Below, piece after piece: positions 12,604 through 51,242 of a stretch of DNA of 51,242 nt. Both the position numbers and the translations under genes were made by a program. The stretch covers positions 1-51,242 of the IMG/VR virus record IMGVR_UViG_3300021080_000001; one strand, written 5' to 3'. Below the pieces are notes generated by a model. The model had not been told where the DNA came from and searched no databases. It saw nothing but the letters and a program-made list of their open reading frames with translations. The stretch's first letter is position 1; each line of letters starts with the position of its first letter. The DNA is from a virus (lineage: Duplodnaviria; Caudoviricetes).

Positions 12604-12700
12604 GGGCGCTTCTCCTGATTGATGGTCTTTCTCTCAAACGTGCAAACGGCCGAGGCCTCGGCCCCGGGCCTTGGGTACTGCCTTTTCCCTTGCGCCCGAC

Positions 12701-13078
12701 TTAGAGGCTCGAGGCCCGCGTCGAGGTAATCATACCCAGCGTCGTGAGGTTGAAGCCTGCCGAGCTGTTGGTGGTCGTCAGCACCCCCTGGGACATAATG
12801 AAGCTCGAGCCTGCCGAGGTGTATTGCACCGCCAAGAGGATGTCCCCCACTTGCATTCCGAGCGCCGCGCCCTCGGTGAAAAAGCCCGGGCTGGTCAGGT
12901 CGGTGGTGAGGTTGGTGGAGATGTACTGCCACATCCCCAGCCCCGCCGCGCGAGTGACCCCGGAGCTCCAAGCGGTCAGTCCAGAACTGCCGAGGATCGA
13001 GCGAGAGCCGGCGGTCCTGGACAGCAGTACCGGCGGATTGCTGACCGAAGAGGCCGCGGTGGTGCCGACATACGCCAT
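12701..13078 (-). CDS. Ser/Thr-rich putative capsid decoration protein (paralog 2)
   Basis: 125 aa, about 31% S+T by hand count; N-terminus MAYVGTTAASSVSNPPV shared with its neighbour. Confidence 0.75.
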   Translation of the reverse strand: MAYVGTTAASSVSNPPVLLSRTAGSRSILGSSGLTAWSSGVTRAAGLGMWQYISTNLTTDLTSPGFFTEGAALGMQVGDILLAVQYTSAGSSFIMSQGVLTTTNSSAGFNLTTLGMITSTRASSL

Positions 13079-13087
13079 GGGCCCTCC

Positions 13088-13474
13088 CTACGAGGTCCCT
13101 TGGATGTTCGACGCCGTCGAGAAGGAGGCGCCGCTCGTGCTCACCGCCGCCACCACGTTCAAGCGCAGCATCTGGCTCGATCCGAGGGTGCTCCCTTGCT
13201 GGACGAAGAAGAAGATGTCGCCGGGGCGCACGCCGAGTTGCGCGGCGTCGGTGAAGTAGTTCGCCGCGAGGACGGCCGAGGTCATGTCGGTGGTGTGGTA
13301 CACCCAGCCCTGCTGGCCGAAGCCCTTGCCTGCGGGGTTGGTGCCGCCGAGTCCGGAGATGTAGAGGGTGGAGCCGCCGGTGATGTGCGCGTCCGCGCCG
13401 CCGCCCATGCCGCCCCAGATCCTGACCGGGGGGTTGCTGACGCTTGAGGCTTGCGTGGTGCCGAGATATGCCAT
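13088..13474 (-). CDS. Ser/Thr-rich putative capsid decoration protein (paralog 1)
   Basis: 128 aa, about 22% S+T, directly after the capsid gene; MAYLGTTQASSVSNPPV and YFTDA..LGVRPGD. Confidence 0.75.
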   Translation of the reverse strand: MAYLGTTQASSVSNPPVRIWGGMGGGADAHITGGSTLYISGLGGTNPAGKGFGQQGWVYHTTDMTSAVLAANYFTDAAQLGVRPGDIFFFVQQGSTLGSSQMLRLNVVAAVSTSGASFSTASNIQGTS

Positions 13475-13514
13475 GGCATTGTCTCCTGTAGGTGGGTCCT
13501 AGCAGACCATCGGG

Positions 13515-14495
13515 TTACGCGTAGGCCGATCCGTCGTGGGTGAAGACGACGTCGCCTGCGTTTTGCAGGAGCTTGGCCGCCATGAAGATCGAGCACCGAG
13601 CATAGCTGTAGTTCTGCTCATCGTTGAACCCGAGCGCGGTGTCCACTTCGCCCGTATTCGCTGCGTGGCCGATCGCCGACTTGTGGAAGAGGAACGACTT
13701 CTCGCTCGCGGTGCCCTTGCCGGGGAGGTTCGGATGCATGACGATGAGCGTGTTCCTCCAGCGGTAGCCCATGGGCGCGTCGCGCCAGTCGGGGGTGTCG
13801 CCGGCGAAGGGCCGGATGTCCACGTACTGGGCGTTGGCGAACTCGGGGGCTTGCTCGAGGTAGGCGAGCATCGACGGCTGGCACAGGAACGTGATGTTCG
13901 AGTCCCAGGGGACCGAGGCGTTTTGCAGCTTCACCGCTCCGTTCTGGAACAGGCTCACGTTGGGCACCTGACCCGCGCCGCCCACGGCGACGGTGCCTGA
14001 GTTCAGCTCCTGGATGACGGTGTCGTCGATCTTCCGGTTGATCACGCCCATCGCGGTGATCTGCATGATGCGGCGCTGGTCGCCCTGGCTTGCGAAGATG
14101 TTGAAGCCGGTCTTCCTCACCAAGTCGTGCCATTCCTGCAGCACGGCCGAGTTCTGGGTGAGGTTGTCCGGGCGGGCGGGGATCAGGCCGTTCACGCCGC
14201 GGGTGACGGCGGACGCGCCGCCTGAGTCGGCTACGAGGAACACCGCGGTCTGTCCCTTGATGACGGCCTCGGTGGTGACGCAGGGCCGCAGTAGCGTCGC
14301 GTGGGCTTCGAAGCCCTGCACAAACTCCTGCCGATACTGGGTCTGGTAGGCGGTGTCGAGCTCGAGCAGGAGCCCTTGCCGGGTGAGGAAGGTGTAGCAC
14401 CAGCGATCGAGCGGCTCGAAGAACGACCGGGCGAGCGATCCGGCCAGGACGAGCGCGAGCTGGACTTTCGCGATGAGGCGGTTCAGCTTGGCCAT
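13515..14495 (-). CDS. Major capsid protein
   Basis: GGAGG RBS before ATG 14495; QYRQEF..GFE, AVTRG.NG.IP and INRKID motifs; follows the scaffold gene. Confidence 0.85.
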   Translation of the reverse strand: MAKLNRLIAKVQLALVLAGSLARSFFEPLDRWCYTFLTRQGLLLELDTAYQTQYRQEFVQGFEAHATLLRPCVTTEAVIKGQTAVFLVADSGGASAVTRGVNGLIPARPDNLTQNSAVLQEWHDLVRKTGFNIFASQGDQRRIMQITAMGVINRKIDDTVIQELNSGTVAVGGAGQVPNVSLFQNGAVKLQNASVPWDSNITFLCQPSMLAYLEQAPEFANAQYVDIRPFAGDTPDWRDAPMGYRWRNTLIVMHPNLPGKGTASEKSFLFHKSAIGHAANTGEVDTALGFNDEQNYSYARCSIFMAAKLLQNAGDVVFTHDGSAYA

Positions 14496-18162: not shown

Positions 18163-19815
18163 CTATCGCCCTCGTCCGGTGAGCGGCGCTCGGCCGCCCA
18201 TCACTGCCCTCGGCAGTCTTCCGAGGGGCCGGCGCAGCGCCCGTGCTTCGCGCTGCTCAGCCCATGCGAGGGCGTCTGTGACCTCTTTCGGTCCTGCCCA
18301 CCACGCCATGATAACCGCATCGCCCTTGTTGGTCGAACGTCCTAGGCGCGCGGTGACATCTTCTTTCGATTCGACCTTGATGCCGTTCGGCGTCGGCTCG
18401 AATATGGGGGTGGTGAGATCGGCCACGAGCTCGGGATCCTCGGGGAGCGCGATCGGGGAGCCGCCGGGCTGGTCCGGATCCAGCGCTTCGCGAAAGACCC
18501 AGTGTGCTGCGCTCCTCACGTTCACGAAGCGCAGCTTCTTGTCCCCGCTGCGTCGCTCGGTGCCTTCGGCTCCCTTGTAGGGGTAGGCCTCGATGTCGTT
18601 CGCCTTGCAGTGTTCGTAGGTTGAGCCGCCGTAGCCCCCGCCCATGTCGATCACCACGAGCGCCCGATCGCGGCGGTAGGAGACGATCACGCCGGTTGAG
18701 TAGCTGCCGATCCGCTCGATGGGCATTTCCTTTCCGGGGATTTCGAGGAGCTCGTCGTACCAGCCGTCATAGCGCCGGGCGAGAAGGAGAGGATCGTTGC
18801 CGCCGCCGGTGCAGTCCACGCCGATCGCGCACATCGGCACGTGCTCGGGGTGTCCGTCCGGCCAGCGCGCTTGGGCGAGTTTCACCCAGCTGGTGGGGAT
18901 GGTCTGGTTCGGCGCATCGCGCAGGGAGGCTTCGAACGAGCCCTGCAGGTAGGCGACGCGCAGCTCCTCGGGGAGACCTGCCAGGCGGCCCTCGTAGCCG
19001 GTGTTGGCGAGATCGGGGTTCTCCCACAGGTGCCCGCGGATGAAGGTGCGGCTTTTCGCTTTGACCCATTTGCCGTCGACCAGGTGGGGGCCGACGTCTT
19101 CCACCTCGGTGTCCTGGCCTTCGACGGTGGTGTACCAGCGGAGCTCGCCCGACTCGGCCGGCTTGTAGTGCTTGGGGTCGAGCCACGGGGCGAAGCGCCG
19201 GATGACCCACAGGCCCAGGGGACGCGTGGGCGGGTTGAGGGTGCTTATGATCCTGCAGCGCGCGCGCGGATTGGTTGAGCGGTTCCAGCCGATGATGAAG
19301 GTGTACTGGGTTTCGGTGAAGTCCTCCAGCTGGTCAAAGACGATCAGGTCGTGCGGGTCGCCCTTGTATTTCTGTTTGTCGCTTTCCAGCTGCACCCCAC
19401 CGATGTCGACCTGGATCTGGTGGGGGATGCGCGCGCGCTGGCCGGCGAGATCGAACTGCGTGCCCGCATCGATCTTCCAGGCGTTGGTGGGGGAGCCGTG
19501 CCACCCCTCGCGTGTTCCCAGGATCTCCTCCATCCGGGGCTGCAGCTTCCCCGATTCCTTGTTCGTGCGGCGCAGGATGAGACTGCGGTAGTGCTCGGTC
19601 AAGGCGAGGCCGATCGCGAGGTCGGTCTTCCCCGGACCTGCTTCCCCGCCGCAGCCGACCTCATCGGCTTCGGAGAAGAACGTGTCGGTCTGGAAGCCCG
19701 GGTTGGGGACCCATACCATCTTGGCCGTGGCGCGGCGCGCATCGCGCGCGACGCGTTTGCGCTGCGCTGGGCTCATCTTGTCCAGCCGGTCGATGATCTC
19801 CTCGAGCGCGCCCAT
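18163..19815 (-). CDS. terL: Terminase large subunit
   Basis: Walker A GGEAGPGKT, Walker B-like LIVFDQ, TLNPP; nuclease motifs IGVD and D.GGG.G, GDA. Confidence 0.9.
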   Translation of the reverse strand: MGALEEIIDRLDKMSPAQRKRVARDARRATAKMVWVPNPGFQTDTFFSEADEVGCGGEAGPGKTDLAIGLALTEHYRSLILRRTNKESGKLQPRMEEILGTREGWHGSPTNAWKIDAGTQFDLAGQRARIPHQIQVDIGGVQLESDKQKYKGDPHDLIVFDQLEDFTETQYTFIIGWNRSTNPRARCRIISTLNPPTRPLGLWVIRRFAPWLDPKHYKPAESGELRWYTTVEGQDTEVEDVGPHLVDGKWVKAKSRTFIRGHLWENPDLANTGYEGRLAGLPEELRVAYLQGSFEASLRDAPNQTIPTSWVKLAQARWPDGHPEHVPMCAIGVDCTGGGNDPLLLARRYDGWYDELLEIPGKEMPIERIGSYSTGVIVSYRRDRALVVIDMGGGYGGSTYEHCKANDIEAYPYKGAEGTERRSGDKKLRFVNVRSAAHWVFREALDPDQPGGSPIALPEDPELVADLTTPIFEPTPNGIKVESKEDVTARLGRSTNKGDAVIMAWWAGPKEVTDALAWAEQREARALRRPLGRLPRAVMGGRAPLTGRGR

Positions 19816-19820
19816 GGGGC

Positions 19821-20825
19821 CTAGCGGCGGCGTTTCGCCCTGGAGCGGGAGGTGGGTCGTATCTTGGGAGGCGTGGCCGGGACGGGGCCCGGTCCAGGTC
19901 CGGGTGGGGGGTCGACCGGCAGCGGCGGCGCTCCCTCTAGCAGCACAGGCGGATCGAGCTCGAGCATGGGCGGGATCGTGGATTCGGTGAAGCGGTGGAG
20001 GGCTGCCTCGATCGCCACGGAGCGCCCGGCGACGATCGCCGAATGGGCGATGGCTTCCGAGAGCGCGAGGCCCGGGTCGGTGTCGTCGGTCCAGGTGGAG
20101 AGGATGTAGTCGAGGTTGTCGATCGCGCCTTTGCAGAATTCCACCTGCGGCTGATTCATCGCGACGTTCTGCTGGTGCATGTTCATGCGGTTCACGAGCT
20201 CGGCGCGGCGGATGAGGAGCTTCGCGTGGCGCGGGTGGTTTTCGATCTTGCCGTAGGGGGTGGGCGGTTGCAGGAGGTCCGATTCAAGGGGCACCACGAC
20301 CTTGATCCCGAGTGCGGCTGCGATGCCGAGGAAGTTCTGGCAGCCCGGGCGCTGGAAGGCGTACTCGGAGTGGGCGGCCATGTCGACGCCCCACAGGCCG
20401 ATCGCCCGGGGGCGCAGCTTGATCGCCAGGGCGAGCATGTAGGCCATGCTCGAGGTCCAGAAATAGGGCCCGAACTCGGCCGACATCTCGTCGAAGGGGT
20501 AGACCACGCAGTTCTTGACGGTGGGCACCTGCTCGGCCATGTAGACCGGGCCCTCGTGCAGCTCGAGGAAGCGCACGTATTCCGGGGAGAACCAGGGCTT
20601 GTTGGCGGCGTTCCGCGGGTCCCCGGGTGCGGCAGGTTCCCAGCGGTGGATCTCGAAGAAGACGTCGGAGCGCCCTGGAGGGATCTCCCCGTAAGCGCCG
20701 GGTGAGCAGCCCCAGATGGCCCATGACTGGTCGGTGTAGGGCGCGAGCCTGACTGAGCTCGGGGCGGAGCCGATGATGGCGATCTTGTCAAAGCCGGGCG
20801 GGCCTAGATCCTTCGCGGCGATCAT
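19821..20825 (-). CDS. Putative CMP-nonulosonate (sialyl/pseudaminyl) transferase, CstII/Maf-like fold
   Basis: [18 protein letters not shown] and [12 protein letters not shown]...IGLWGVDM....YAF parallel the CstII motifs as I recall them; C-terminal coiled coil and Pro-rich tail. Confidence 0.6.
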
Positions 20826-21220
20826 AGGATCGCCCCCTCGCGCATGGTGCGGGCGGCCTCACCGTGGACCCCAAGGTGGCATGCCCTGCACAACCATCGG
20901 ACCTCAAGCGGTTTATTGTAGTCGTCGTGATGCTTCTCGGCGGAGAGGTTGCCGCAGTTCTCGCACGGTTTGCGTGCCAGCTTCCCGCGCCGCTGATAGA
21001 CGTTCGCGTAAGAGCGCGACTTTGACGCCTGGCGCTGAGCGCTCGGCAGGTCGGCGTAGCGACGGCGCGTCCTACGCGCATGCGCCGCGTGGCAATTCAG
21101 GCAATATCTTTGTCCTTGTCGGCGGACTTTCTCGCGACACTTTGAACAGAGTTTCACGTGAAACCTCTCTTTCTGATCTCGCGCGGTTTCGCGCGCTGGA
21201 GTTGCCTGGATGCTGAACAC
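20822..21220 (-). CDS. Zn-finger HNH-like endonuclease
   Basis: CxxC pairs and [20 protein letters not shown]. True start probably GTG near 21157. Confidence 0.7.
21150..21165. promoter_or_regulatory. parS-like palindrome
   Basis: aGTTTCACGTGAAACc: perfect 14-bp core, 14/16 match to TGTTTCACGTGAAACA. Confidence 0.55.
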
Positions 21221-21496: not shown

Positions 21497-21958
21497 TTAG
21501 GTCGTTGCCGCGCGGCTGATGGCGCTCGTGCCGTTGGTGAGCAGGCCCCACAGGGCGGTGGTGAGCCCGATCAGCTCGACCACGCACCCGGTCAAGGTGG
21601 AGGAGATCACCGTGGCGATGGTGCTGTCGGCGCTCGTCCTGAAGGTTTCCGCGTTCTGGGTCCTCAAGTACTGCGGCGTGTTCGCCGAGGAGAAGATGAT
21701 CGTCTTCCTTACCCCTGGGATCGGGGGCTCGAGCACGTAGACGCTCGAGCTCGCGGCGGAGGTGCCGGCGAGGAACGAGCATCCCCAGGCGGGGACCGTG
21801 ACGAGGGTGGTTTCCGCGGTGGTCACGCCGCGGCGCAGGTCCTCCGGGCCGACCAGCACTTCGGAGGGTTGCCGGCCGCCGAACTGCGCGGTCGACAGGG
21901 GCTGCAGGCCGAGCCTGCGGCCATAGATGGAGGTGAGGATGTTGCTGTTGTAGGACAT
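21497..21958 (-). CDS. Ser/Thr-rich putative virion protein
   Basis: 153 aa, about 27% S+T, beta-strand pattern, AGGAG RBS. Confidence 0.7.
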   Translation of the reverse strand: MSYNSNILTSIYGRRLGLQPLSTAQFGGRQPSEVLVGPEDLRRGVTTAETTLVTVPAWGCSFLAGTSAASSSVYVLEPPIPGVRKTIIFSSANTPQYLRTQNAETFRTSADSTIATVISSTLTGCVVELIGLTTALWGLLTNGTSAISRAATT

Positions 21959-21971: not shown

Positions 21972-22358
21972 TTATATTTGCTCGCCTGAATGGCTGCTGC
22001 GGAGATTGCCGGCGTTCGCGCCGGCGGGTTGCGCGGGCTTCTCTTTCACATCCCGTGCGGTTTCCTTGGCGCCGTTCTTGCCGAGCGCCATCTTGGTGAT
22101 CTGCAGTTCGACGTTGCGGTCGCCCTTGTTCTGCACCGAGGACGACTCGCTCACGCGGGTCACCTTCACCGTGGCCTCGAGCTCGAGCTCCTCGCCCACA
22201 TTGGGCAGCTTCATCTTCAAGGCGTCCAGTTCGAAGTTCTCCAGGCGCACGGTGAGGCCGTAGCCGTAGTACGGCTCGTTCGGTGAGCCTGGCATCGCGA
22301 GCTCTGCGGTGCCGTCCTTGCGGCGCGGGCGCTTCATGCTCACCAGGGCGGCGGCCAT
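21972..22358 (-). CDS. Capsid staple/cement protein (epsilon15 gp10-like)
   Basis: Y.YGL.VRL...EL..L...LP.VG......ATVKV...S....R.VELQITKM pattern. Confidence 0.6.
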   Translation of the reverse strand: MAAALVSMKRPRRKDGTAELAMPGSPNEPYYGYGLTVRLENFELDALKMKLPNVGEELELEATVKVTRVSESSSVQNKGDRNVELQITKMALGKNGAKETARDVKEKPAQPAGANAGNLRSSHSGEQI

Positions 22359-22360
22359 GG

Positions 22361-22726
22361 CTACTTGCCCCAGACCTCGACGCTCACCACCCCAGAGGAG
22401 GCCGCGGCGAGGGAGAAGCCGGTGGAGGTCCCGGGGATCTGGAAGTCACGCGAGCCGACCACGTAGGAGGAGAGGCCCGAGGACTGGCTGGTGCCGCTGG
22501 TGAAGCTCGAGTCGGCGGCGCTCGATGCCTTGGTCGAGCCGTCGTTGAAGTAGAAGGCGAGCGGGCCGCCCAGGGTGGTGACCCCGGTCACGCGCGCGAT
22601 GTCGGACCCTGCTGGCCAGTCGGCGGCGAGCGGTGTGTTGGCGGCGAGGGGGAACTTTGCTTGGACGTCCGACGGGATCGGGATGTTGTTCGCGTCGGTG
22701 GGGTGCAGCACTCCTGCGGTTCGCAT
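22361..22726 (-). CDS. Ser/Thr-rich putative virion protein
   Basis: 121 aa, about 25% S+T (SSAADSSFTSGTSQSSGLSS); C-terminal GVVSVEVW strand. Confidence 0.7.
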   Translation of the reverse strand: MRTAGVLHPTDANNIPIPSDVQAKFPLAANTPLAADWPAGSDIARVTGVTTLGGPLAFYFNDGSTKASSAADSSFTSGTSQSSGLSSYVVGSRDFQIPGTSTGFSLAAASSGVVSVEVWGK

Positions 22727-23713: not shown

Positions 23714-23731
23714 GGGTTCGGGGCCCTTTTT
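23714..23731 (+). terminator. Possible intrinsic terminator
   Basis: Short GGGTT..GGCCC hairpin followed by T5, at the convergence with terS. Confidence 0.35.
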
Positions 23732-24257
23732 ATTCATCCAGCGCGGTCTTGGGCTTCGGCTTGGGTTTGCCCTGGCGCCCGGCGAGGGTGAGCGTGAAGG
23801 CGATCCGGCGCGCCAAGTCCTTCACGTCCTCGGGCCCCTCGGGTTGGAATTCGCCGTCGCCCAGTCCTGGCAGCACTTCGAACTCCGCGGTTTCCTTCAT
23901 GTGCAGGCGCACCTTCGCCCAGAAGATGGCGGCGGCGGCGCTCTTGGCGGTCAGGCGCAGCAGGTTCTGGCCGGCGGTGAGGTCGGCTTTCAACAGGCCC
24001 CGGTCCAGCTCCTCGCGGAAGTGCTTCCGGAGGGTGACAGGGGAGATGGGGCGCTTGGTGGCCGGGTTGATGACGAGGATGGTCATCCTGTCCTCGGGGA
24101 TCCCCAGGCCCGCCATCGCCTCCACCATATTCGATTGCTCGGGGTTCGGTTTGAAGCCCCCGCCTGGAGGTCGGCCGGCGCGGCGTTTACGCTTTGGCCT
24201 TGGCTGGCTTCGCGCGGCGGGTGGCGATCTCGTCGAAGCTGCGGTGTTCTTTTGCAT
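23730..24257 (-). CDS. terS: Terminase small subunit-like protein
   Basis: V..MAG.G.P...I, IS..TL.KHF.EEL..G and AAIFW.K pattern; follows a methyltransferase remnant, as is common in phages. Confidence 0.65.
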   Translation of the reverse strand: MQKNTAASTRSPPAARSQPRPKRKRRAGRPPGGGFKPNPEQSNMVEAMAGLGIPEDRMTILVINPATKRPISPVTLRKHFREELDRGLLKADLTAGQNLLRLTAKSAAAAIFWAKVRLHMKETAEFEVLPGLGDGEFQPEGPEDVKDLARRIAFTLTLAGRQGKPKPKPKTALDE

Positions 24258-24465: not shown

Positions 24466-25259
24466 GGGATTTATATACTTAACTTCCTTCATATCGCCAT
24501 CTCCGCTTGCCGCTGTTCCTCAGCGATGCGGTCGCTAAACTCAAGCGCCTCGCGGTAGTTATTCGGATTCCTGCCTTTGGCGCGGGCGGAGAAACTCCAT
24601 GCCATAGAATCTGCCGAGTGCAAATAACTGCGGATGATCGGATTGGATAGGGCTGTAGTTTTCAGGCCGAACCCGTGCAGGCGCAGGTCTGGCCTTTCTG
24701 TCTTGATGGCCGACAGCACGTGCCAGATCGCTGCGGGATCGCCATTGCGCTTGCAGATGGAGCCGACGCCCACCCAAGCGCCCTGCGCGAGCCGTGCGCC
24801 GTACTGGCTAACGTGGGACACGTAATCCTCCGGGGCATGGCCTTGCAGCACCGGCATGATGTAGACACCCGAATGGCACGCCAGCAGCGCGTCGTAGCGC
24901 TCGATGGTGAGCCGCTGGTGATCGGCAACGGTAAGCCCAGTCTTGGCGAGCATCCACGACTCGCACATGTAGTCTTGAGCCACCACGGCAAGCAGGTTTC
25001 CGTGCATTTGCCGCCCGCAGATTGCGCGGATATCAGCAGCGTATGCCTCCACCGGCATCGGGTAGCCGCCGTGCTTTGCAATCGTGGTGAACGCCCCGCT
25101 GTCCATGATCCAGTCGCCCACCTTGAAACTGCTTTTCCGGTTACGCAGACGGTTGACCGACACGAACGCAGCATTAAAATGCTGCGCGTCGCTCGGTTGG
25201 TGCAGTCCGGTGAAAAATCTCATCTATTCCTCGGTTGGGGAGTTAAGTATGTAATTCCC
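24466..25259. mobile_element. Transposase-less IS1595-type insertion cassette carrying a dpdA-like gene
   Basis: 22-bp TIRs at 24466-24487 and 25238-25259 (19/22 match); lower-GC interior; no target duplication. Confidence 0.75.
24489..25223 (-). CDS. dpdA: DpdA/TGT-like 7-deazaguanine DNA transglycosylase
   Basis: DSGAF, QDYMCE, PVLQG, GVGSIC.R, LHGFG.K and SADSMAWS motifs of TGT-fold phage proteins. Confidence 0.75.
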   Translation of the reverse strand: MRFFTGLHQPSDAQHFNAAFVSVNRLRNRKSSFKVGDWIMDSGAFTTIAKHGGYPMPVEAYAADIRAICGRQMHGNLLAVVAQDYMCESWMLAKTGLTVADHQRLTIERYDALLACHSGVYIMPVLQGHAPEDYVSHVSQYGARLAQGAWVGVGSICKRNGDPAAIWHVLSAIKTERPDLRLHGFGLKTTALSNPIIRSYLHSADSMAWSFSARAKGRNPNNYREALEFSDRIAEEQRQAEMAI

Positions 25260-25271: not shown

Positions 25272-26351
25272 TCACGCAATGCTGCCGGGCGGGCGGGGGT
25301 CGGGCTTGCGGAGGAGCTCCCAGGTGAGGGGTTCGCCTGGGGCGATGTCGCGCGCGGCGGCGACGCCGAGGAAGTGGTGCAGTTCCCTGGGCGGCAAGCC
25401 GTCCGCGGGTCTGAGCGGGCGCACGTTGTGGCCGCTGAACGGTTCTCCCGCTTTCATCGCGCGTATCACGTGGAGCGTGCGGCGCAGAGCGTAGGTTGAG
25501 CGCTCGGATTCGGTGGGCCCGAAGCGCTCCTCGCCGATCGCATCCATCGCCGCGTGCACGGCGTCGATCATGTCGCGCAGGTCCGCCGGTTCGGCGGAGA
25601 ATTCCGCGTCGAGGCCCCCTGCGGCGCGATCGAGCGTGAAGTGCTTCTCGATCATATCGACGCCGTAGAGGGCGGCGGCGATCGCCACGGTGCTCCCGCG
25701 GGTGTGATCTGAGAGGCCCACTTTGCAGCCGTAGTGCTCGCGCAGGTTGTTCAGGGTTTCAAGGTTGGCCTCGGCCGCCGGCGCGGGGTAGGCCGCGGTG
25801 CACTTCAGCAGCGTGATCTGGTTGGTGTCCAGGGCGCTCGTGGCAGCGGCGACCGCCTCATCGATCTCAGCTAAGGTAGCCATCCCGGTGGAGATGACCA
25901 TGGGCTTTCGGGTCGCAGCGGCGACCCGGATGAGATCCAGGTCGAGGATCTCGCAGGAGGCGATCTTGTACATGGGGCAGCCCAGGCGCTCAAGGAAAGG
26001 CACGGCGTCCGGTTCGAACACGCTCGCAAAGGCGAGAATGCCGCGCTCGCGGGCCTGGGTAAAGAGCGCCTGGTGCCAGCTCCAGGGGAGCGCGCCGCGC
26101 CGGTATAGATCGTAGAGGTCCTCGCCGTCCCACTGCCCGCCCTCGATCCGGTGCCGGGTGCCGGGATAGATCATGCCCTCGGGGGTGTAGGTCTGCACCT
26201 TGATCGCGTCGGCGCCGGCTGCGGCTGCGGCGGTCACGGTGGCGAGGGCGAGATCGAGATCCTGGTTGTGGTTCGCTCCGAGTTCTGCGACCACGAACGG
26301 GTAAAAATCGAAGGGCTCCTTCGCCCTGCGCAGCTCACCAGGGAGGATCAC
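25272..26351 (-). CDS. pseI: Pseudaminic acid synthase (NeuB family with SAF domain)
   Basis: VAELGANH, GADAIKVQTY, YKIAS.E, ISTGMA, LLKCT..YPA, GLSDHT, IEKHFTL.R, RR.L...RP..GL.P. Confidence 0.9.
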   Translation of the reverse strand: MILPGELRRAKEPFDFYPFVVAELGANHNQDLDLALATVTAAAAAGADAIKVQTYTPEGMIYPGTRHRIEGGQWDGEDLYDLYRRGALPWSWHQALFTQARERGILAFASVFEPDAVPFLERLGCPMYKIASCEILDLDLIRVAAATRKPMVISTGMATLAEIDEAVAAATSALDTNQITLLKCTAAYPAPAAEANLETLNNLREHYGCKVGLSDHTRGSTVAIAAALYGVDMIEKHFTLDRAAGGLDAEFSAEPADLRDMIDAVHAAMDAIGEERFGPTESERSTYALRRTLHVIRAMKAGEPFSGHNVRPLRPADGLPPRELHHFLGVAAARDIAPGEPLTWELLRKPDPRPPGSIA

Positions 26352-26872
26352 GTGCGCGCCCAGAGCTCGAGGGCGCGGGCGACCTCCTCCAAGGTGCTCG
26401 AGCTAAAGTCCCCGGCGGTGGCCGCGCGCCTCAGTTCCGAGGCCCAGGCTGGGAGGTTCCTTTTCACGACCTGGATCTGGCGGGCGAGCTCTCCGCGCGC
26501 GTAGTCCTCGGCGTTATTTTCCACGGGCTTCAGCGCGTCGTGGGTGCCGCGCTCAACCAGCCCCACGATCACGTAGGGGCGCGGGGGTTCAGCGGCCCGC
26601 CCCGGGATCGCGCGCCGGGTGCCCGAGGCGGGGATCGCGGCTTGGGCGGGGCGTCCCTCCGGTCGATGGATGAGGATGTCGGGGGTCACCTTCTGGTAGC
26701 GCATGCACTCGTCGAACCCGTGCAGGTCCGCTTCGGTGATGAGGACCGTCATCTCCGGGTTCTGATGACGGTTTTTCCACAGGAGAAGCTGCAGGGCGCG
26801 CGCGCCGCCCGCTTCGGCGAATTGGTCGAGGGCGTCCTTAGTCTTCGCGCGGGGCGCTTTGGCCTTCGCCAT
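26348..26872 (-). CDS. Hypothetical protein
   Basis: ATG 26872 after AGGAG; stop overlaps the pseI start. Confidence 0.65.
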   Translation of the reverse strand: MAKAKAPRAKTKDALDQFAEAGGARALQLLLWKNRHQNPEMTVLITEADLHGFDECMRYQKVTPDILIHRPEGRPAQAAIPASGTRRAIPGRAAEPPRPYVIVGLVERGTHDALKPVENNAEDYARGELARQIQVVKRNLPAWASELRRAATAGDFSSSTLEEVARALELWART

Positions 26873-27332
26873 GGTCTTCTCCTGGTTGTGGCAAGCGATA
26901 GGTGCTCTGGATATGCTTCGCCCCGAGGCTTTCGAAAAGGGCGATCGAGGCGACGTTTGCAGGATTGACATTGGCGACGAAGAACCCGGGGATCTCCCCT
27001 GGCACCCCTGGCAGGGGCGTAATCATGCCTATTATGCGCTTGACCGCTTTTCGCCCCCAGCCGTGCCCGCGGTGCTCGGGGACGATGTGCACGCCGATCT
27101 CGTTCCGCTTGGAGACGGAGACCGTCCCGATCCATGTCTCCGCCAAGCTGATGAGGTACCAGGCCCGGTAGGGATGGTCATCGACATAGGCGAGGTGCTC
27201 GCGCAGGCTCGGCATCCTGACGTGGCTGATGTTCATTTGCGGGTTCCTGCCCCGCTCGAGCAAGAGTTGCCACAGGAACTCGACGTGCCCTGAGCGGCGC
27301 GCCTCCACCGGGATCAGGCTGATGTCGGCCAT
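26838..27332 (-). CDS. pseH: GNAT N-acetyltransferase, PseH-like
   Basis: EIG..I.PEHRGHGWG and V...N.ASIALFESLG; lies within the Pse cluster. Confidence 0.7.
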   Translation of the reverse strand: MADISLIPVEARRSGHVEFLWQLLLERGRNPQMNISHVRMPSLREHLAYVDDHPYRAWYLISLAETWIGTVSVSKRNEIGVHIVPEHRGHGWGRKAVKRIIGMITPLPGVPGEIPGFFVANVNPANVASIALFESLGAKHIQSTYRLPQPGEDHGEGQSAPRED

Positions 27333-27508
27333 CGGGTGCGCCCAAATCCCATGATAACCCAGCAGCCCGTGCACGCCCAGATGGGCCCGCGTCCGTAGCA
27401 GGCTTCCACCCCGCACGCTTGGCACGCCCTCGCGAGGAGGGTGCCGTCAGCGTTCATGCCCGCCACGTTGGCCTTGGCGAGGTCCGCGGGAAGGTGGTGC
27501 TGCATCAA
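27314..27508 (-). CDS. Small Cys-rich (Zn ribbon) protein
   Basis: 64 aa with CxxC...C...CxxC; ATGA-coupled to the upstream gene. Confidence 0.5.
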   Translation of the reverse strand: MMQHHLPADLAKANVAGMNADGTLLARACQACGVEACYGRGPIWACTGCWVIMGFGRTRWPTSA

Positions 27509-28266
27509 GCGCGGATCCTTGTCTCGATGCCGTGTTCGGCCAGGTAGCGCGCGGCGTCTTCGGGGGTCTGGTCGGTGAACTGAAACATGGCACCGGCGGC
27601 GACTGCGTCCGCGCCCGCCTCGATCGCTTCGCGCATGTGCTCGTAGCTCCCGCAGCCGCCGTGGGCGATGACCGGGATGGGGAGGTTGGGGGCGATCCTG
27701 TGGATCAACTCGAGATCGTACCCCGCCAGAGTGCCCTCGCGGGAGATGGAGGTCAGCAGCAGTTCCCCCGCGCCGCGCGCCGCGAGGAAGGCGGCGACGG
27801 AAAGCGCTGGGCCGCAGAGGGGCTCTGGCGGGTGGTGGTGGCCGTTTCGGGAGCGCACGGTGCCGTCGGCCGCAACGTCTAAGGCGACTACGATCGCCTG
27901 GGATCCGACCACCCGGGCGCAGCGGGTGACGAGGTACGGCTGCTCGAGCGCCGCGCTGCCGATCACCACCTTGTCGGCGCCAGCTCGGAGGAGCGCGATC
28001 ACCTGCTCGAGCGAGCGCACGCCGCCCCCCACGGCAAGGGGCATGAAGCAGTCGGTGGAGAGCTCGGAGACGAGTTCGAGATCGGGGCCACGGCCCTCCG
28101 CGGTTGCCGCGATGTCAAGGAGCACGAGTTCATCTACGCCGCGCAGTTGGTGGACGCGCACCGCTTGCGCGGCGAGGCCGACCGAGCGCCAGGCGTCGAA
28201 CCGTACGCCCTTCACCATCTGCCGACCACGGGTGAGGATCGTGGGGATGATGCGTTTGGAGATCAC
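27505..28266 (-). CDS. HisF-like cyclase (WbuZ-type partner of sugar amidotransferase)
   Basis: KRIIP.IL, KG..F, DEL..LDI.A, PL.VGGG, GADKV, GAGELLLTSI.REGT..GYD, A.GG.G. Likely GTG start at 28266. Confidence 0.85.
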   Translation of the reverse strand: MISKRIIPTILTRGRQMVKGVRFDAWRSVGLAAQAVRVHQLRGVDELVLLDIAATAEGRGPDLELVSELSTDCFMPLAVGGGVRSLEQVIALLRAGADKVVIGSAALEQPYLVTRCARVVGSQAIVVALDVAADGTVRSRNGHHHPPEPLCGPALSVAAFLAARGAGELLLTSISREGTLAGYDLELIHRIAPNLPIPVIAHGGCGSYEHMREAIEAGADAVAAGAMFQFTDQTPEDAARYLAEHGIETRIRA

Positions 28267-28454
28267 CCGGCCAACCTCGGCGGTGCGCTCTCGGGCCACA
28301 GTGACAAGCGATTCTGCCGGCGCAGGCGCTGCAGTTCCTCGCGCTCGGCCGGGGACTTCTTCGGCAGCTTTCGGGGCGCGCGCGGCGGCGCGAGCTCGGG
28401 GCCGCTTGATGGTGGCGGCTTAGATTCGCCGGTCTCCAAGCGATGACCCAGCAT
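28263..28454 (-). CDS. Hypothetical protein
   Basis: 63 aa; fills the gap and overlaps the HisF-like start (GTGA). Confidence 0.4.
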   Translation of the reverse strand: MLGHRLETGESKPPPSSGPELAPPRAPRKLPKKSPAEREELQRLRRQNRLSLWPESAPPRLAG

Positions 28455-28471
28455 CGGGCCGAGATATGCGC

Positions 28472-29590
28472 TCAGGCGAATTCCTTCAGGATCGGGCGGT
28501 CATCGAGAACCCGGCCGAAGAGGTCCCAGTTGGTAAAGCGCTTGAGCACGTCGAAGAGTTGTCGCTCGGTCATTTCGATGCGCTCCAGAACCTGCTCCAG
28601 ATCCACCCCAGCATACTCGTGCGGGAAGAGGCCATCGCAACCGCGCACAACCTCCAGGGCGTCGCTGCGCGTAATGCGGCCGTTGCGGATGTCGACCGAA
28701 GCCTGGGCTGCGGCGCGCCCGTAGCCGTACTTGCAGTACATGGCGAAGTCGTGCAGTCCCGTCATGGCGTTGTCGAGATTCTCGTGGGCCCACCAGTTCG
28801 CCTCGCTGGGGAACTTCTGGCGCATGCCGTGCTCGGCGGCCACTTGGGCGTTCCGGTGCGAGTCCCAGGGGAAGTAGGCGCCCATGAAGTGGACCTCGAC
28901 GCCGGCCGCCTCCATCGCCTGGGCGTCCATCGGCATGTAGGGACGCATGTCGGTGAGGCTGAAGCCGTGATCCCCGGAGAGCAGGTCCTGGGCGCGCAAT
29001 CCGAGGAAGCCGCCGAACTCGGTCACCCAGCGCCGGGTCATCTGCTTCGCTTGCTCGGTACCTGGGGGCCCTCCGTAGGCTTCTTGGGGGTTTTCGCCGT
29101 ATAAAACCAGCTGCACCCCGAGCGCCGCAGCGATGCTCCACGGGGTGCTGAAGATCGTGGCGTGCTCGGGCCAGCTGATGTCGCCCACGAGCTCAAGGCC
29201 CAGGCGGTTCAGCTTCGCGCGCACGCTGCGGTTGGGCGTCACCTCGATCGTCGGGGCGAAGCGAGCGAGGTTGTCCAGGTTCGCCCGGCCGATCAGGGTG
29301 AGCATGCAGGTCGAGGCGGTGACGAGGAGCGGCCGGTAGCCCAGTTCGATCACTTTCAGCGCGATCCAGTGGCTGTCCTTGCCTCCTGAGCTCGCCACGA
29401 TGCAATCGTAGGGGGCGAGCGAGTAGGCGCGAGCGCTGTAGTTCGCCATCAGCTCGTGGAATTCGAGCTCGCGCGCGGCCCAGTCCACTGCCGGCCGTCT
29501 GGTGAAGGAGCGGCAAGCCGAGCACACGCCGTCCTCGAAGGGGGTGTCCGGGCGGGTGTCGGGGATGACGCAGAGTCGGCAGCGGTTCAT
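28472..29590 (-). CDS. N-acetyl sugar amidotransferase (PseA/WbuX-like)
   Basis: CxxC..PDTRP...GVC.AC, YDCIV..SGGKDS (PP-loop), YGEN...YGG, K.GYGR...QAS.DIR.G.ITR. Confidence 0.88.
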   Translation of the reverse strand: MNRCRLCVIPDTRPDTPFEDGVCSACRSFTRRPAVDWAARELEFHELMANYSARAYSLAPYDCIVASSGGKDSHWIALKVIELGYRPLLVTASTCMLTLIGRANLDNLARFAPTIEVTPNRSVRAKLNRLGLELVGDISWPEHATIFSTPWSIAAALGVQLVLYGENPQEAYGGPPGTEQAKQMTRRWVTEFGGFLGLRAQDLLSGDHGFSLTDMRPYMPMDAQAMEAAGVEVHFMGAYFPWDSHRNAQVAAEHGMRQKFPSEANWWAHENLDNAMTGLHDFAMYCKYGYGRAAAQASVDIRNGRITRSDALEVVRGCDGLFPHEYAGVDLEQVLERIEMTERQLFDVLKRFTNWDLFGRVLDDRPILKEFA

Positions 29591-30309
29591 GGATGCTTCT
29601 GCATCAAAAACCAGGTCAGGTCGTCCTGGGGAAAATGGTCGCGGTGATAGATGAAGCCGTAGTCGAGAAGCTCAACGTTCGGATACTGTCCCATCAGCTC
29701 GCCCGCAAAATCGCGCCGCCACAGTGCCCGGGTGTAGCCCCGGTACTGGATCACCTGGGGCGTGGGGTTGTAGTACTCGGCCATGAGGATGTAGCGCTTG
29801 GAGCAGCGGTAGAGGGTCTCGTAGGCCGCGGCGATGTAGTCGGGGGCAATGTGGATCAGGACGCCCTTGGTGAAGGCCATGTCCCACAGGCGATCGGGCT
29901 CGAACCCGAGGAGGCTCCCCCGGATGGTGTAGTCGGCCACGCGTTCGAGGAGCGCGCGCGCTTTGGGGTTGATCTCGAGGCCGGTCGTTTCGATGTCCCG
30001 GTCGATGTCCTTGATCGCCTGGAGGTTGGAGCCTGCGCCCGCGCCGAGCTCGATCACCGACCACAGGGGGTAGTCGATCAGGGCGAGGATCTTGGCGAAG
30101 AGCGCGCGGTTGTTCTCCAGGCCCCCGAGGTTCCGGTCGGTGTACTCGTCCCCGAAGGGCCCCGCCCACAGGCGCTCCTGGAAGTTCCTCGGGCTCACTT
30201 GCATGATGTCGGGCAGGTGCGCTCCCAAGCGCGCCCTCATGCGCTCGACCAGCTCGGCCATTCCCGGGCCGAAGAGGGTGCGCGCGAAGCGGACGATGCT
30301 CTCGTTCAC
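29587..30309 (-). CDS. Pseudaminic acid biosynthesis-associated SAM methylase
   Basis: QE..W.G.FGDEY..RN, ELGAG.G.NL, TKGVLIHI.P, AEYYNP.P, RDFAGE, DYGF.YHRD..PQDD.TWFL. Likely start GTG 30309 overlapping the pseF stop. Confidence 0.85.
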   Translation of the reverse strand: MNESIVRFARTLFGPGMAELVERMRARLGAHLPDIMQVSPRNFQERLWAGPFGDEYTDRNLGGLENNRALFAKILALIDYPLWSVIELGAGAGSNLQAIKDIDRDIETTGLEINPKARALLERVADYTIRGSLLGFEPDRLWDMAFTKGVLIHIAPDYIAAAYETLYRCSKRYILMAEYYNPTPQVIQYRGYTRALWRRDFAGELMGQYPNVELLDYGFIYHRDHFPQDDLTWFLMQKHP

Positions 30310-30926
30310 AGGATCTGCCTGGGTTGGGGTACGCCGTCGGTATCGCCCTCGAGTCTGCGGCGCCAGGCGGCGTACATCTGCTTGGCGTGGATCCAGTCCT
30401 CCTCGGTGTTGATGTCGATGTAGCGCCCGGTGAGTCCCATCATCAAATAATGGGGGCTCTCCCCGAGCGGCGTTCGCGCGAGAAACGCGCCGACACTGCC
30501 CCAGTAGTACCAGCCCGGCACGAACGCCCACGTTATCCACGGCTGCTCGTCCAGGAGCTTGCGGCCCGTGCGCAGGTCCTCCGGGGTCATCATGGGGGCG
30601 GTCGGGTAGATGCAGCAAGCGTGCTCGATGCCTGGGCCGCAGCCGTTCAGGGCGTCCCTGGTCACCTCCTGGGTGCCGGTGTCGTCATCGGCGAGGCGGC
30701 TGTGGCGCCGCAGATAGCTCGCCCCGTAGTCCATGGCGATCGCGCCGATCAGGTCGGAGTCGGTCGAGACGATGATCCGGGCGAAGAGGCCACTCGCCTT
30801 CGCCGCGAGGATCGAGTAGGCGATGATCGGCTTGCCGTGAAACAAGCGGATGTTCTTTTCCGGGATTCTCTTGCTGCCGGCCCGGGCGGGGATGATGGCG
30901 ATCGCGCTCATTTTGTGGGCCACCAC
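30306..30926 (-). CDS. pseF: CMP-pseudaminate synthetase (acylneuraminate cytidylyltransferase)
   Basis: AIIPARAGSKRIP.KNI..F.GKPIIAYSI, VSTD, CCIYPTAP, DINTEEDW. Confidence 0.88.
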   Translation of the reverse strand: MVAHKMSAIAIIPARAGSKRIPEKNIRLFHGKPIIAYSILAAKASGLFARIIVSTDSDLIGAIAMDYGASYLRRHSRLADDDTGTQEVTRDALNGCGPGIEHACCIYPTAPMMTPEDLRTGRKLLDEQPWITWAFVPGWYYWGSVGAFLARTPLGESPHYLMMGLTGRYIDINTEEDWIHAKQMYAAWRRRLEGDTDGVPQPRQIL

Positions 30927-31399: not shown

Positions 31400-31402
31400 G
31401 GG

Positions 31403-32056: not shown

Positions 32057-32060
32057 GTGG

Positions 32061-32432: not shown

Positions 32433-32674
32433 CCCCACTTGAGCTCCTGCGCGACCTTGATGCCGATGTGCTTGCAGGCGTTGAGGAGGTCGGTGACGAT
32501 CGATTTGGCCTGCTCGCGGTTGAACTGCAGGTGGTCGCTCGGATGGGTGAACTTCAGGAACACCATGCCGGTGGGGGCGTTCGCGTAGGTTTCCACCTTC
32601 TGGTCCATCACGATCGGGGGGCGTTGCTTTGCCTTCAGGGCGTCGCGCAGTTGCTCGGGTTTCATCGGAAGCAC
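32429..32674 (-). CDS. Hypothetical protein (possible paralog of neighbour)
   Basis: GMVFLKFTHP...LQFN...A resembles the neighbour's GKVILRFPEP..IAFD...A. Confidence 0.55.
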   Translation of the reverse strand: MLPMKPEQLRDALKAKQRPPIVMDQKVETYANAPTGMVFLKFTHPSDHLQFNREQAKSIVTDLLNACKHIGIKVAQELKWG

Positions 32675-33345
32675 TCCATCTGGGAGAGATCGGGATAATC
32701 ATCGTTCAGCAGGTCCGGATTGTCATCGGGCAGGAAGGACAGGCGCACCAGGCCCTCGGCCGCGATTTCCGGGGACATGTAGGCGTGCCAGCCGGCGAAG
32801 CTGAAGGTGTCATCCTTGGGTGCCACGTTCTCGGTGCGCCCGTCAAAGCGCGCCCGGCGTAGCCACGCGTCGGCTTCCTTGCTCGAGTGCAGGATCGCCC
32901 CGCCCTGCTGGATGCCGAGGATCTTGGACCAGTGGAACGAGAGGCACACCATTTCGTCGTTCAGGGACGGCGCGTTCTCGTTCCTGTCGCTCCAGCGCGA
33001 GCTCCAAGAGTACATGTTGCTCCGGAGGCGCCTGGCGCTGTCGTAGATCGGCAGCGGGTTCAGGCGGTAGGCGCCTTGCCAGTTCTCGTCCCTGAAGGTG
33101 GGACGGGCCCCGGCGTGGATGATGCTCATCGGCACGCTCACGTAGGTGCGCCGCGGGATGTCGATCACCGGGCGGCCGACCCAGGGGCGATCGCGCAGAG
33201 GGAGCTCGCGCAGGTGGTAGGCGATCGCGAGGAGGAGTGCCATGGTGCAGCTGGAGACGGCCACGCAGTAGGGGGCGCCGGCGTACTCGGCGACGGCTTG
33301 CTCGAACTCCTGGACGACCTGGAAGGGGTTGTGGCGCTGTTTCAC
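32662..33345 (-). CDS. pseC: DegT/DnrJ-family PLP sugar aminotransferase, PseC-like, short form
   Basis: FEQAVAEY.GA.Y.VAVSSCT.AL, P..TYVS, DSA, SFH..K (PLP lysine), GGAI. Confidence 0.8.
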   Translation of the reverse strand: MKQRHNPFQVVQEFEQAVAEYAGAPYCVAVSSCTMALLLAIAYHLRELPLRDRPWVGRPVIDIPRRTYVSVPMSIIHAGARPTFRDENWQGAYRLNPLPIYDSARRLRSNMYSWSSRWSDRNENAPSLNDEMVCLSFHWSKILGIQQGGAILHSSKEADAWLRRARFDGRTENVAPKDDTFSFAGWHAYMSPEIAAEGLVRLSFLPDDNPDLLNDDYPDLSQMECFR

Positions 33346-34226
33346 AGCTTCGCCAGTTCCATGCGCAGCGCTTCGATCGTCATCCGGGGCGCGTCGTAGG
33401 AACGCCGCGGGCCGCCGGGTTCGCCGTAGGCGAGGAGCGATTCGTGGGTCTTTTCGTCGGTGCCGAGCTCGTCGTTCACTTCGACGTCGAGGTCCGCCTC
33501 GGGCAGCATGGCGAGGGCGAGGTCGCCCAGGCGATAGGCGGGGAGAGTGGGCACGAGTAGGGTTCCCCCTGGGAGCGTGTTCACCTGCAGGACGAGGGCC
33601 ACGGCTTGGGGGGCTGTGATCCAGAAGCGTGTCGCCTCGGGGTTCCTCACCGTGATCTTGCGTCCTGCGGCGAGGGCTTCACGCCAGATGGGGATCACCG
33701 AGCCCGTGCTGCCGGCGACGTTGCCGTAGCGGGTTGCGCTGAATTTCGGAGCTAGATAGTGGCCGACCGTGTTGCTTGCGCCGAGGAAGAGCTTCTCGGC
33801 GAGCAGTTTCGTGGCCCCGTAGCAGTTCAGGGGTTCGACCGCCTTGTCGGTGGAGATGAGGATGGCCGAGTGGACCCCGGCATCGATGGCGGCCTCGATC
33901 ACGTTCTGGGTCCCGAGCACGTTGGTTTTCATCATCTCGGCCGGGTTGTAGACCCCGACCTCGATGCGCTTCAAGGCGGCCGCGTGGACCACGGTGTTCA
34001 CCGACTCCATGGCCCAGCGCAGGCGCGGCTTGTCGCGCACGTCCCCGATGAACCAGCGCAGGCGCGGGTCGTCGTTGAACTCGGCCCGCATGGCAGCCTG
34101 AGCCGCCTCGCTGCGGGAAAAGATGCACACCCGCGCCTCGCCCTGGTCGAGGAGTTCGCGCGCAAGCGCGCGCCCCAGGAACCCTGTGCCGCCGGTGATG
34201 AGCCAGCCGATATGCGCGGGTTTCAT
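33342..34226 (-). CDS. pseB: UDP-GlcNAc 4,6-dehydratase (inverting)
   Basis: ITGGTG.LG, IGDVRD..RL, HAAALK, YNP.E..KTN..G, STDKA..P.N.YGATK, RYGNV.GS.GSV, TRFWI. Confidence 0.9.
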   Translation of the reverse strand: MKPAHIGWLITGGTGFLGRALARELLDQGEARVCIFSRSEAAQAAMRAEFNDDPRLRWFIGDVRDKPRLRWAMESVNTVVHAAALKRIEVGVYNPAEMMKTNVLGTQNVIEAAIDAGVHSAILISTDKAVEPLNCYGATKLLAEKLFLGASNTVGHYLAPKFSATRYGNVAGSTGSVIPIWREALAAGRKITVRNPEATRFWITAPQAVALVLQVNTLPGGTLLVPTLPAYRLGDLALAMLPEADLDVEVNDELGTDEKTHESLLAYGEPGGPRRSYDAPRMTIEALRMELAKL

Positions 34227-34230
34227 GGGC

Positions 34231-34267
34231 AAAAAGAAGCCGCGCCACCCGGCAGAGTGAGCGCGGC
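34231..34267 (-). terminator. Intrinsic terminator immediately upstream of pseB
   Basis: Minus strand GCCGCGC-TCAC...GTG-GCGCGGC followed by TTCTTTTT. Confidence 0.65.
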
Positions 34268-41392: not shown

Positions 41393-41420
41393 CCCGGACC
41401 GCACTCAATCCGTCCTTGGG

Positions 41421-51115: not shown

Positions 51116-51242
51116 AAAATGCTCACGTGGATGTCTCCCGAAATATCCAAGCCTTGAGTGCAACGGGCCACGATCCTCTGGTTGACCTGGAGCGTTGCGG
51201 TAAAAGTCGTCTCCGCTGATTGCGCAGGGTCGACCGAGAGCG
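51116..51242. repeat. Terminal direct repeat, right copy
   Basis: Identical to 1-127. Confidence 0.95.

Follow-up and report, generated by a model that had tools for sequence, protein, structure and literature searches.

The window analyzed here is the complete virus record IMGVR_UViG_3300021080_000001 of IMG/VR (51,242 bp), a T7-like podovirus genome in which a gene without annotation, referred to below as gene X, encodes a protein of 334 amino acids (aa). On the basis of sequence comparisons, we predict that X is a minimal Maf/GT42-like transferase of cytidine monophosphate (CMP)-activated nonulosonic acids that founds a new glycosyltransferase (GT) family related to CstII and Maf (estimated probability, about 60%). 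This core prediction is supported by the predicted fold of X, by profile alignments that exceed their controls, and by the repeated linkage of X, in three phage backbones unrelated to one another, to cassettes for nonulosonate biosynthesis. Gene context is the strongest part of this evidence.

Gene X is an open reading frame (ORF) on the minus strand (19821..20825, stop codon included) with an ATG start. A preliminary description of this DNA had reported the ORF as unannotated, and direct searches agree with this: no model match was obtained in Pfam (E ≤ 10), PHROGs, or NCBIfam or among PDB sequences. The motif strings quoted in that description are present exactly in the translation. We detected 784 homologues of X at E ≤ 1e-3 (8,000 candidates scored), and in a 50%-identity library, 3,028 cluster representatives matched at E ≤ 1e-3 (1,645 at ≤1e-10); these numbers indicate that the gene is real. 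The X family is very large and phage-only; the search of 185,579 species genomes returned only five X loci, each on a contig of a metagenome-assembled genome. Named homologues are "hypothetical" in every naming source of the homologue searches, apart from the single copy in GenBank phages, which belongs to Microcystis phage Mvi-Yong1342-1 (37% identity) and is annotated as a "type 11 methyltransferase." A divergent subfamily (alignment A3; approximately 30 to 35% identical to X) is unquestionably homologous to X by profile comparison (hhalign probability, 100%; E = 3.3e-64). Residues conserved at a level of at least 85% in both subfamilies are G19, W38, F57, E58, H60, P110, M130, A134, G146, D148, M149, E154, Y155, Q158, G173, P179, S182, Y191, and G233. 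Judged from the alignments, this pattern of conserved residues is enzyme-like. The overall conservation of X is about level with that of the large terminase subunit TerL (45 to 60% identity).

The window carries a near-complete pseudaminic acid (Pse)-type nonulosonate pathway on the minus strand (25272-34232), with the following recognized genes.

25272..26351 (-), NeuB/PseI-type nonulosonate synthase with a SAF domain (PF03102, E = 9.5e-78; PF08666, E = 1.7e-8)
26838..27425 (-), GNAT acetyltransferase with a putative PseH-like role (PF13302, E = 5e-7; PF00583, E = 2.4e-6)
27505..28299 (-), HisF-like cyclase, the putative WbuZ-type partner of the amidotransferase (PF00977, E = 1.4e-52)
28472..29590 (-), WbuX/PseA-type N-acetyl sugar amidotransferase (TIGR03573, E = 2.5e-72; 244 bits versus a cutoff of 203)
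29587..30618 (-), Pse biosynthesis-associated methylase (TIGR03587, E = 1.2e-60 on residues 147-341)
30306..30926 (-), PseF/NeuA-like cytidylyltransferase of 206 aa (PF02348 at 30570-30902; 80.5 bits versus a cutoff of 22.6)
32662..33345 (-), PseC/DegT-like aminotransferase, a remnant or a divergent form (PF01041 positions 25-92 and 164-236 only)
33342..34232 (-), PseB/FlaA1-like uridine diphosphate (UDP)-sugar 4,6-dehydratase (PF02719, E = 2.3e-70)

Genes of this kind recur in phages that carry X. Among 80 related IMG/VR loci, 24 of the 25 having at least 8 kb upstream of X contain at least one cassette gene. NeuB is present in 26 of the 41 whole records of the close clade (9 of the 10 records that are at least 90% complete) and in 24 of the 50 records of the divergent subfamily (all 5 of those that are at least 90% complete). 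Overall, 14 of the 15 near-complete relatives carrying X have NeuB, against a base rate of 2 in 50,697 GenBank phage records when the NeuB of the window was used as the query. The flanks of the divergent subfamily show no detectable similarity to the TerL, portal, or capsid proteins of the window, except for two weak TerL matches.

Two complete genomes illustrate the linkage. The gene order in L191 (48.9 kb) is TerL (Terminase_6), 2-hydroxyacid dehydrogenase, methyltransferase, HNH gene, NeuB, X, NeuC-like UDP-N-acetylglucosamine 2-epimerase, cytidylyltransferase, and P22-like portal. This genome has the NeuC, NeuB, and NeuA steps, and the transferase is the one function missing. The order in L192 (65.6 kb) is TerL, Mu-like portal, X, cytidylyltransferase, hexapeptide acetyltransferase, and NeuB, followed farther on by PIG-L, PseB-like, and DegT genes and MuF. 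X is embedded in the sugar cassette in both of these unrelated backbones, and both cassettes lie within head-morphogenesis blocks. Altogether, X travels with Pse-type and NeuC-type cassettes in three head-module backgrounds, and the cassettes are otherwise without a transferase.

A structural model of X was built with AlphaFold2 on a 29-row alignment (mean predicted local distance difference test [pLDDT] score, 78.9) and comprises the following regions.

20241..20825 (-), X residues 1-195, predicted Rossmann-like alpha/beta catalytic core with alternating strands and helices (pLDDT mostly 87 to 95)
20094..20234 (-), X residues 198-244, one long helix (assigned by DSSP; pLDDT 85 to 92)
19824..20078 (-), X residues 250-334, Pro-rich tail, predicted to be disordered, with a basic C terminus (KRRR; pLDDT 44 to 65)

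The long helix ends in a conserved GAxDNLxYxLxTW motif (invariant columns G233, Y240, and W245) and is therefore probably part of the enzyme. The tail varies in length and sequence, and only the closer relatives (alignment A1) retain its basic end. The suggestion of the preliminary description that the coiled coil and the Pro-rich tail may dock X on assembling particles is speculative. According to the model, X belongs to the fold group that the preliminary description had proposed, the best PDB match being CstII and not a protein of an unrelated fold. This match is weak: when the core model (residues 1-245) was used as a Foldseek query against the PDB, nothing scored below E = 1e-3, and CstII (GT42; 1ro8_B) came first with E = 2.3e-3, a probability of 1.00, and a template modeling (TM) score of 0.42 on the target. 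The next matches were Bacillus subtilis thiamine pyrophosphokinase (3lm8; TM, 0.45) and the MptE-type 6-hydroxymethyl-7,8-dihydropterin pyrophosphokinase (HPPK) of Methanocaldococcus jannaschii (8sd5; TM, 0.47), and further ones were SteA, Cst-I (2p56), and the Pasteurella multocida sialyltransferase (9c08). In a viral structure library, the matches past the uncharacterized members of the X family itself were 685- to 700-aa phage proteins named MptE-like and a DUF115 protein.

Profile comparisons were made with 17 alphaproteobacterial Maf-type PF01973 domains and with 25 GT42 proteins (alignment A4), and 30 block-shuffled alignments plus a reversed alignment served as hhalign controls. When a 76-sequence X profile was searched against the PDB, GT42 chains were the best matches (7 of the 10 matches listed; E = 0.28 to 1.2) and were aligned over TSxxxMxAxAI...I.L.G.D..E..YA; no pyrophosphokinase chain was among these PDB profile matches. 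The default hhalign run of X against GT42 gave P = 1e-4 over 34 columns (44% identity), and a permissive local run gave a score of 39.6 over 162 columns (P = 7e-5; shuffle maximum, 29.3; reversed, 14.8). Since the GT42 score exceeds those of all shuffled and reversed controls, the resemblance of X to CstII is above chance at the level of sequence profiles. The global alignment of the X core with Maf PF01973 was collinear over 197 columns (score, 30.0; P = 1.2e-5; probability, 60%), while the shuffled controls reached at most 15.4 (0 of 30 attained 30.0) and the reversed control reached 2.6. The corresponding local score was 34.5 (shuffle maximum, 29.4; reversed, 12.4). Because the probability is only 60%, the homology between X and Maf would be remote. 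The positive control (i.e., Maf versus GT42) gave P = 5e-9, and in the available text of PMC11339370, the central domain of Maf (PF01973) is described as similar to Cst-II. These alignments suggest that X is a remote relative of both Maf and GT42 and, by their own models, a member of neither, so that the term "new family" is apt.

The CstII strings given in the preliminary description were accurate where checked. The GT42 consensus (A4) reads IIAGNGPSL ... YDVFRCNQF ... RITSGIYMCAxAIALGYKxIYLTGIDFY...YAF, and residues 131-158 of CstII in the PDB alignment read TSG-VYMCAVAIALGYKEIYLSGIDFYQN. When the GT42 motifs were looked for in X, the local alignment paired most of GNGPS, RCN, TSG...A.AI, GxD, and YAF, with a Ser at the N31 position. 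Other searches were less informative. The 76 family members had only scattered chance matches in Pfam, with none to PF06002 at E ≤ 1; bridging through a 29%-identical member (L086) yielded 53 relatives, none of them Pfam-labeled; a 29-sequence X profile found only coiled-coil proteins in the PDB, at insignificant E values (approximately 0.1); and a six-frame PF01973 search of the whole virus record gave no candidate. A protein atlas placed X near a viral cluster (score, 0.80) in which 16% of the members carry PF01973, and this is a lead only.

Beyond the collinear global alignment, the motifs of Maf and X correspond in order: the loop following strand 1 is G rich, strand 2 is followed by a motif of small residues, strand 3 is followed by a conserved His, and a helix with GxD is present. 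Both would be cytoplasmic, both are genetically linked to Pse, legionaminic acid, or neuraminic acid genes, and both are expected to use Ser/Thr-rich protein acceptors, which in the case of X are predicted. However, X has a single globular domain with a long helix and a disordered tail (334 aa) rather than three domains in approximately 650 to 700 aa or more, has no match to the PF01973 model, and is encoded by phages and not in flagellar loci. The Maf open frames collected here mostly span 683 to 1,219 aa, with extra N- and C-terminal domains (available text of PMC11339370).

GT42 (CstII, Cst-I, Lic3A, and the P. multocida sialyltransferase; PF06002) provides the best PDB fold and profile matches of X. 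The aligned positions (X/GT42) are G19/G8, P22/P11, S23/S12, C40/C30, F57-E58/F35-E36, T124-S125/T131-S132, G146-x-D148/G152-x-D154, and Y155-A-F/Y163-A-F. By analogy, a CMP-activated nine-carbon sugar donor may be expected for X. Unlike GT42, X has no lid insertion after GxD, and the catalytic His of GT42 (H189 in A4 numbering; H188 of CstII) has no conserved equivalent in it. GT42 enzymes act on lipooligosaccharide glycans, whereas X is suspected to use a protein acceptor.

We propose that X would function as a cytoplasmic, minimal glycosyltransferase of the Maf/GT42 (CstII) fold group, whose donor is most likely a CMP-activated nonulosonic acid. In the window phage, this donor would be a Pse derivative from the phage's own cassette, probably with acetamidino and methyl groups. 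It would be made through PseB, the PseC-like enzyme, the GNAT acetyltransferase, NeuB/PseI, the cytidylyltransferase, the WbuX/HisF amidotransferase pair, and the Pse-associated methylase, and X would then move the sugar onto hydroxyl groups of the acceptor. Given the analogy to the GT42 invariant residues G8, T131-S132, G152-x-D154, and Y163, the nucleotide-sugar site may be formed by the conserved G19 loop, T124-S125, G146-x-D148, and E154-Y155. Since the CstII lid and catalytic His are absent, the general base may be one of the family-invariant residues H60, E58, and E154.

Several observations weigh against this prediction. X lies below ordinary search detection, having no direct match to PF06002, PF01973, or other models; the hhalign probabilities are only 36 to 63%, and the global profile alignment of X with GT42 fails (score, -0.6). 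The structural matches are weak (E ≥ 2e-3; TM, 0.42 to 0.47), and the modeled structure by itself does not tell a sialyltransferase from a pyrophosphokinase of the same fold. At the residue level, the GxxPS loop is absent from the divergent subfamily, which has GFTDHR, and the lid and catalytic His of CstII are without a conserved counterpart in X: in the model, the GxD motif runs straight into a helix (residues 152-171), and H152 is variable in A1, with E154 and Q158 being invariant instead. The proposal in the preliminary description that X is a CMP-nonulosonate transferase with CstII/Maf-like motifs, possibly of a new GT family, is supported by fold, profiles, and context. A strict tie of X to the pathway is not seen: X occurs without NeuB or a cytidylyltransferase in G003, a relative at 96% completeness, and in the complete genome of Microcystis phage Mvi-Yong1342-1. 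X is also core in the window clade (23 of the 23 major capsid protein-related loci with room upstream), so part of its co-occurrence with NeuB is inherited by shared ancestry. Moreover, the NeuB base rate was drawn from GenBank phages and not from IMG/VR.

It is unlikely that X is another nucleotide-dependent enzyme of the same fold, i.e., a pyrophosphokinase or a nucleotide-sugar hydrolase or modifier (e.g., an enzyme for the PseG step). MptE-type HPPK and thiamine pyrophosphokinase belong to the same alpha/beta fold group and score level with CstII in Foldseek, but they give no sequence-profile signal; GT42 chains are found among the PDB profile matches, and the shared motif is that of GT42/Maf. 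The invariant residues of X are rich in acids (E58, D148, and E154), as in metal-dependent phosphotransfer enzymes. X is linked to nonulosonate cassettes and not to pterin or thiamine genes, none of which was seen among the scanned neighbors. PseG, which was not found in the window, would be irrelevant to the NeuC-type route. The two phages with X and without the pathway fit a nontransferase function; however, X accompanies both Pse-type and NeuC-type cassettes, whose only common elements are a synthase, a cytidylyltransferase, and the requirement for a transferase.

The genes beside X, including candidate acceptors of the predicted transferase, are as follows.

18163..19815 (-), large terminase subunit TerL, immediately downstream of X (phrog_979, E = 8.8e-24)
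20822..21220 (-), HNH endonuclease between g153 and X (phrog_2340, E = 3.3e-15)
21497..21958 (-), g153, small Ser/Thr-rich beta protein, candidate virion surface protein and acceptor by Ser-plus-Thr content, fold, and synteny
21972..22358 (-), g128, Gp10-like, major-coat-protein-like small protein (PF21628, E = 7e-8, 33.1 bits versus a cutoff of 27; phrog_825)
22361..22726 (-), g121, small Ser/Thr-rich protein of unassigned family (homologues in 17 of the 80 loci; no Pfam or PHROG match)

Virion proteins appear to be the most plausible acceptors because g153 is Ser/Thr rich and spike-like, g128 is coat-like, and the cassettes lie in head-assembly blocks. We tentatively suggest, at somewhat less than even odds, that X modifies a surface protein of the virion encoded in the same late gene block, with g153 or g121 as the candidate; the particles would then exit the cell bearing a sialic-acid-like sugar. 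Ser and Thr together make up 26.8% of g153 and 24.8% of g121, versus a mean of 11%. Among PDB folds, the g153 model (pLDDT, 73.4) comes closest to the capsid spike of Pseudomonas phage Pa223 (E = 3.6e-4), with the N-terminal domains of tailspikes ranking next. In 58 of the 80 loci, X is preceded by a g153 homologue (median gap, 91.5 nt), as it also is in two divergent loci (L138 and L173). The family, with homologues in 60 loci, has an N-terminal TSIYGRRLGL motif, a variable Ser/Thr-rich middle, PPxPGV and LxGxTTAxW motifs, and a C terminus ending in Thr or Ser. Against a role as the acceptor, g153 was not detected in three cassette-bearing lineages (L019, L051, and L057). A complex prediction of the X core with g153 scored 0.00 and gave no verdict. 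The broader proposal that a widespread, phage-only GT family acts with phage nonulosonate pathways in head blocks and O-glycosylates capsid spikes or other virion surface proteins is slightly more doubtful still.

Mycobacteriophages offer a precedent for virion glycosylation, in that phage glycosyltransferases encoded in the structural gene block reportedly modify capsid or tail proteins; X would likewise be a phage-encoded transferase within such a block. To our knowledge, the mycobacteriophage systems employ other GT families and host nucleotide-sugars and involve no nonulosonic acid or phage-encoded sugar pathway. The abstract of a genome announcement states that two putative glycosyltransferases suggest capsid glycosylation.

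The predicted transferase might instead act on the host, moving the phage-made nonulosonate onto flagellin, pilin, a lipopolysaccharide or capsule precursor, or a surface glycoprotein and leaving the virions undecorated; such a modification could, for example, mask receptors or block superinfection. All of the evidence for a CMP-nonulosonate transferase applies equally to this alternative, and nothing ties X to g153, the complex prediction being without a verdict. The characterized relatives use host-type acceptors, as described in the available portions of the literature (i.e., flagellin for Maf and lipooligosaccharide for GT42), but X is without the large N- and C-terminal domains of Maf, and no membrane segment was noticed in it. 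The positional evidence also argues against a host target: X and the cassettes are located in late head-morphogenesis blocks (between TerL and portal or between portal and MuF), and the window X stands among small virion-like proteins. We therefore consider a host acceptor improbable.

The position of X next to the terminase gene raises a further alternative, i.e., that X is a packaging factor, either small-terminase-like or terminase-accessory, with a role in DNA recognition or motor assembly. The X stop is 5 nt from the TerL start (19815), and a TerL homologue lies downstream of X on the same strand in 77 of the 80 loci (median gap, 156 nt). X is core to its clade, as noted above, it has a long helix and a basic C terminus, and none of the models identified a small terminase in the window. 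The adjacency is nonetheless broken in L191, where four genes part TerL from X, and in L192, where the portal gene lies between them, and in the Microcystis phage, a gene annotated as small terminase stands between the X homologue and TerL. X is conserved about as well as TerL, with enzyme-like invariant polar residues; it has no Pfam or PHROG terminase match, and its predicted fold is of the Rossmann nucleotide-binding type. A packaging role is thus very unlikely. A 175-aa basic protein, g175 (23730-24257, minus strand), has a helix-turn-helix-like middle and an AAIFWAKVR motif; it matches only phrog_12540 (function unknown; E = 4.4e-5), with no Pfam match at E ≤ 1 and no GenBank phage match. 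By its motif, g175 is a candidate small terminase subunit.

Least probable of all is the attachment of nonulosonate by X to phage DNA as a new hypermodification near the packaging step: although X adjoins the terminase, the window has a DNA-modifying DpdA beside NeuB, and dedicated transferases that glycosylate phage DNA with other sugars are well documented (available text of PMC13326640), DpdA is outside the module (0 of the 80 related loci), base-activation genes (for hydroxymethyl-pyrimidines or the like) were not seen among the scanned ORFs, the cassettes lie in head-morphogenesis and not nucleotide-metabolism blocks, and the same available text has no mention of NeuB, sialic, pseudaminic, MptE, GT42, or sialyltransferase.

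The DpdA gene encodes a 7-deazaguanine DNA transglycosylase of the DpdA family (24489-25223, minus strand; PF23859, E = 1.9e-36) and lies directly downstream of NeuB; given its absence from the 80 related loci, it looks recently acquired. No preQ0 synthesis genes were seen among the scanned window ORFs. The HNH gene, whose stop is overlapped by the X start by 4 nt, also has no homologue in the 80 related loci; it therefore lies outside the conserved module and probably encodes a homing endonuclease. The L191 cassette likewise contains an HNH_3 gene.

The literature covered here (titles and abstracts, with subscription journals outside the coverage) holds no description of the X family or of nonulosonate-modified phage particles, and few nonulosonic-acid transferases are known according to the available text of PMC5420450. 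If X is such a transferase, its 200-residue core, which has none of the accessory domains of Maf, would define the minimal machinery and could provide a compact glyco-engineering tool for pseudaminic or legionaminic acids. The data suggest that a large group of soil and water phages puts 8 to 10 kb into an activated sialic-acid-like sugar, with the pathway and the predicted transferase placed within head-assembly genes. If virions are indeed decorated in this way, many phage particles in the environment would have a coat of sialic-acid-like sugars, which would represent a new kind of virion modification. Such decoration would be relevant to phage adsorption and stability, to the recognition of particles by hosts and grazers, and to the interpretation of viral "auxiliary" sugar genes in metagenomic data. 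Since the X family is not modeled in Pfam, PHROGs, or NCBIfam, thousands of proteins now called hypothetical would gain an annotation if it were named.

Some features of the window cassette call for comment. The true start of the methylase is probably internal to its ORF, and homology to its relatives starts near residue 128 to 150. The cytidylyltransferase is 37% identical to the CTP_transf_3 protein of L191, and its residues 6-190 are conserved in relatives. We also considered a frameshift that would fuse the cytidylyltransferase to the methylase but rejected it, since relatives conserve the 206-aa ORF from end to end. The PseC/DegT-like ORF matches TIGR03588 far under the cutoff (E = 3.2e-8), spanning model positions 25-236 of 360. 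The ORF that overlaps it (32061-32702) has no match, and the region at 32061-33345 could hold an aminotransferase gene that is broken or highly divergent, or it could reflect a frameshift in the assembly. The other cassette ORFs without a model match are at 26348-26971, 30908-31399, and 31403-32056, and no PseG or HisH gene was recognized in the cassette.

Sugar genes were also observed in other arrangements. In L060, WbuX and HisF homologues (12613-14458) lie between TerL and the portal gene and not upstream of X, which is another rearrangement keeping sugar genes in the packaging/head block. In L193 (1420-1500), the GT42 gene taken for comparison starts with a run of SINQ repeats encoded by a tetranucleotide repeat, much like phase-variable lic3A-type genes.

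Further Ser/Thr-rich proteins without a family match are encoded on the minus strand of the window at 329-1549 (27% Ser plus Thr) and 41101-42171 (20%); the former closes the tail gene block and may be a fiber. Nearly all of the window genes are on the minus strand, and the structural module is of the T7 type, with tail tubular proteins, internal virion proteins, a major head protein, and a portal. The record has an exact 127-bp direct terminal repeat (1-127 and 51116-51242), which fits the ends of a complete T7-like genome.

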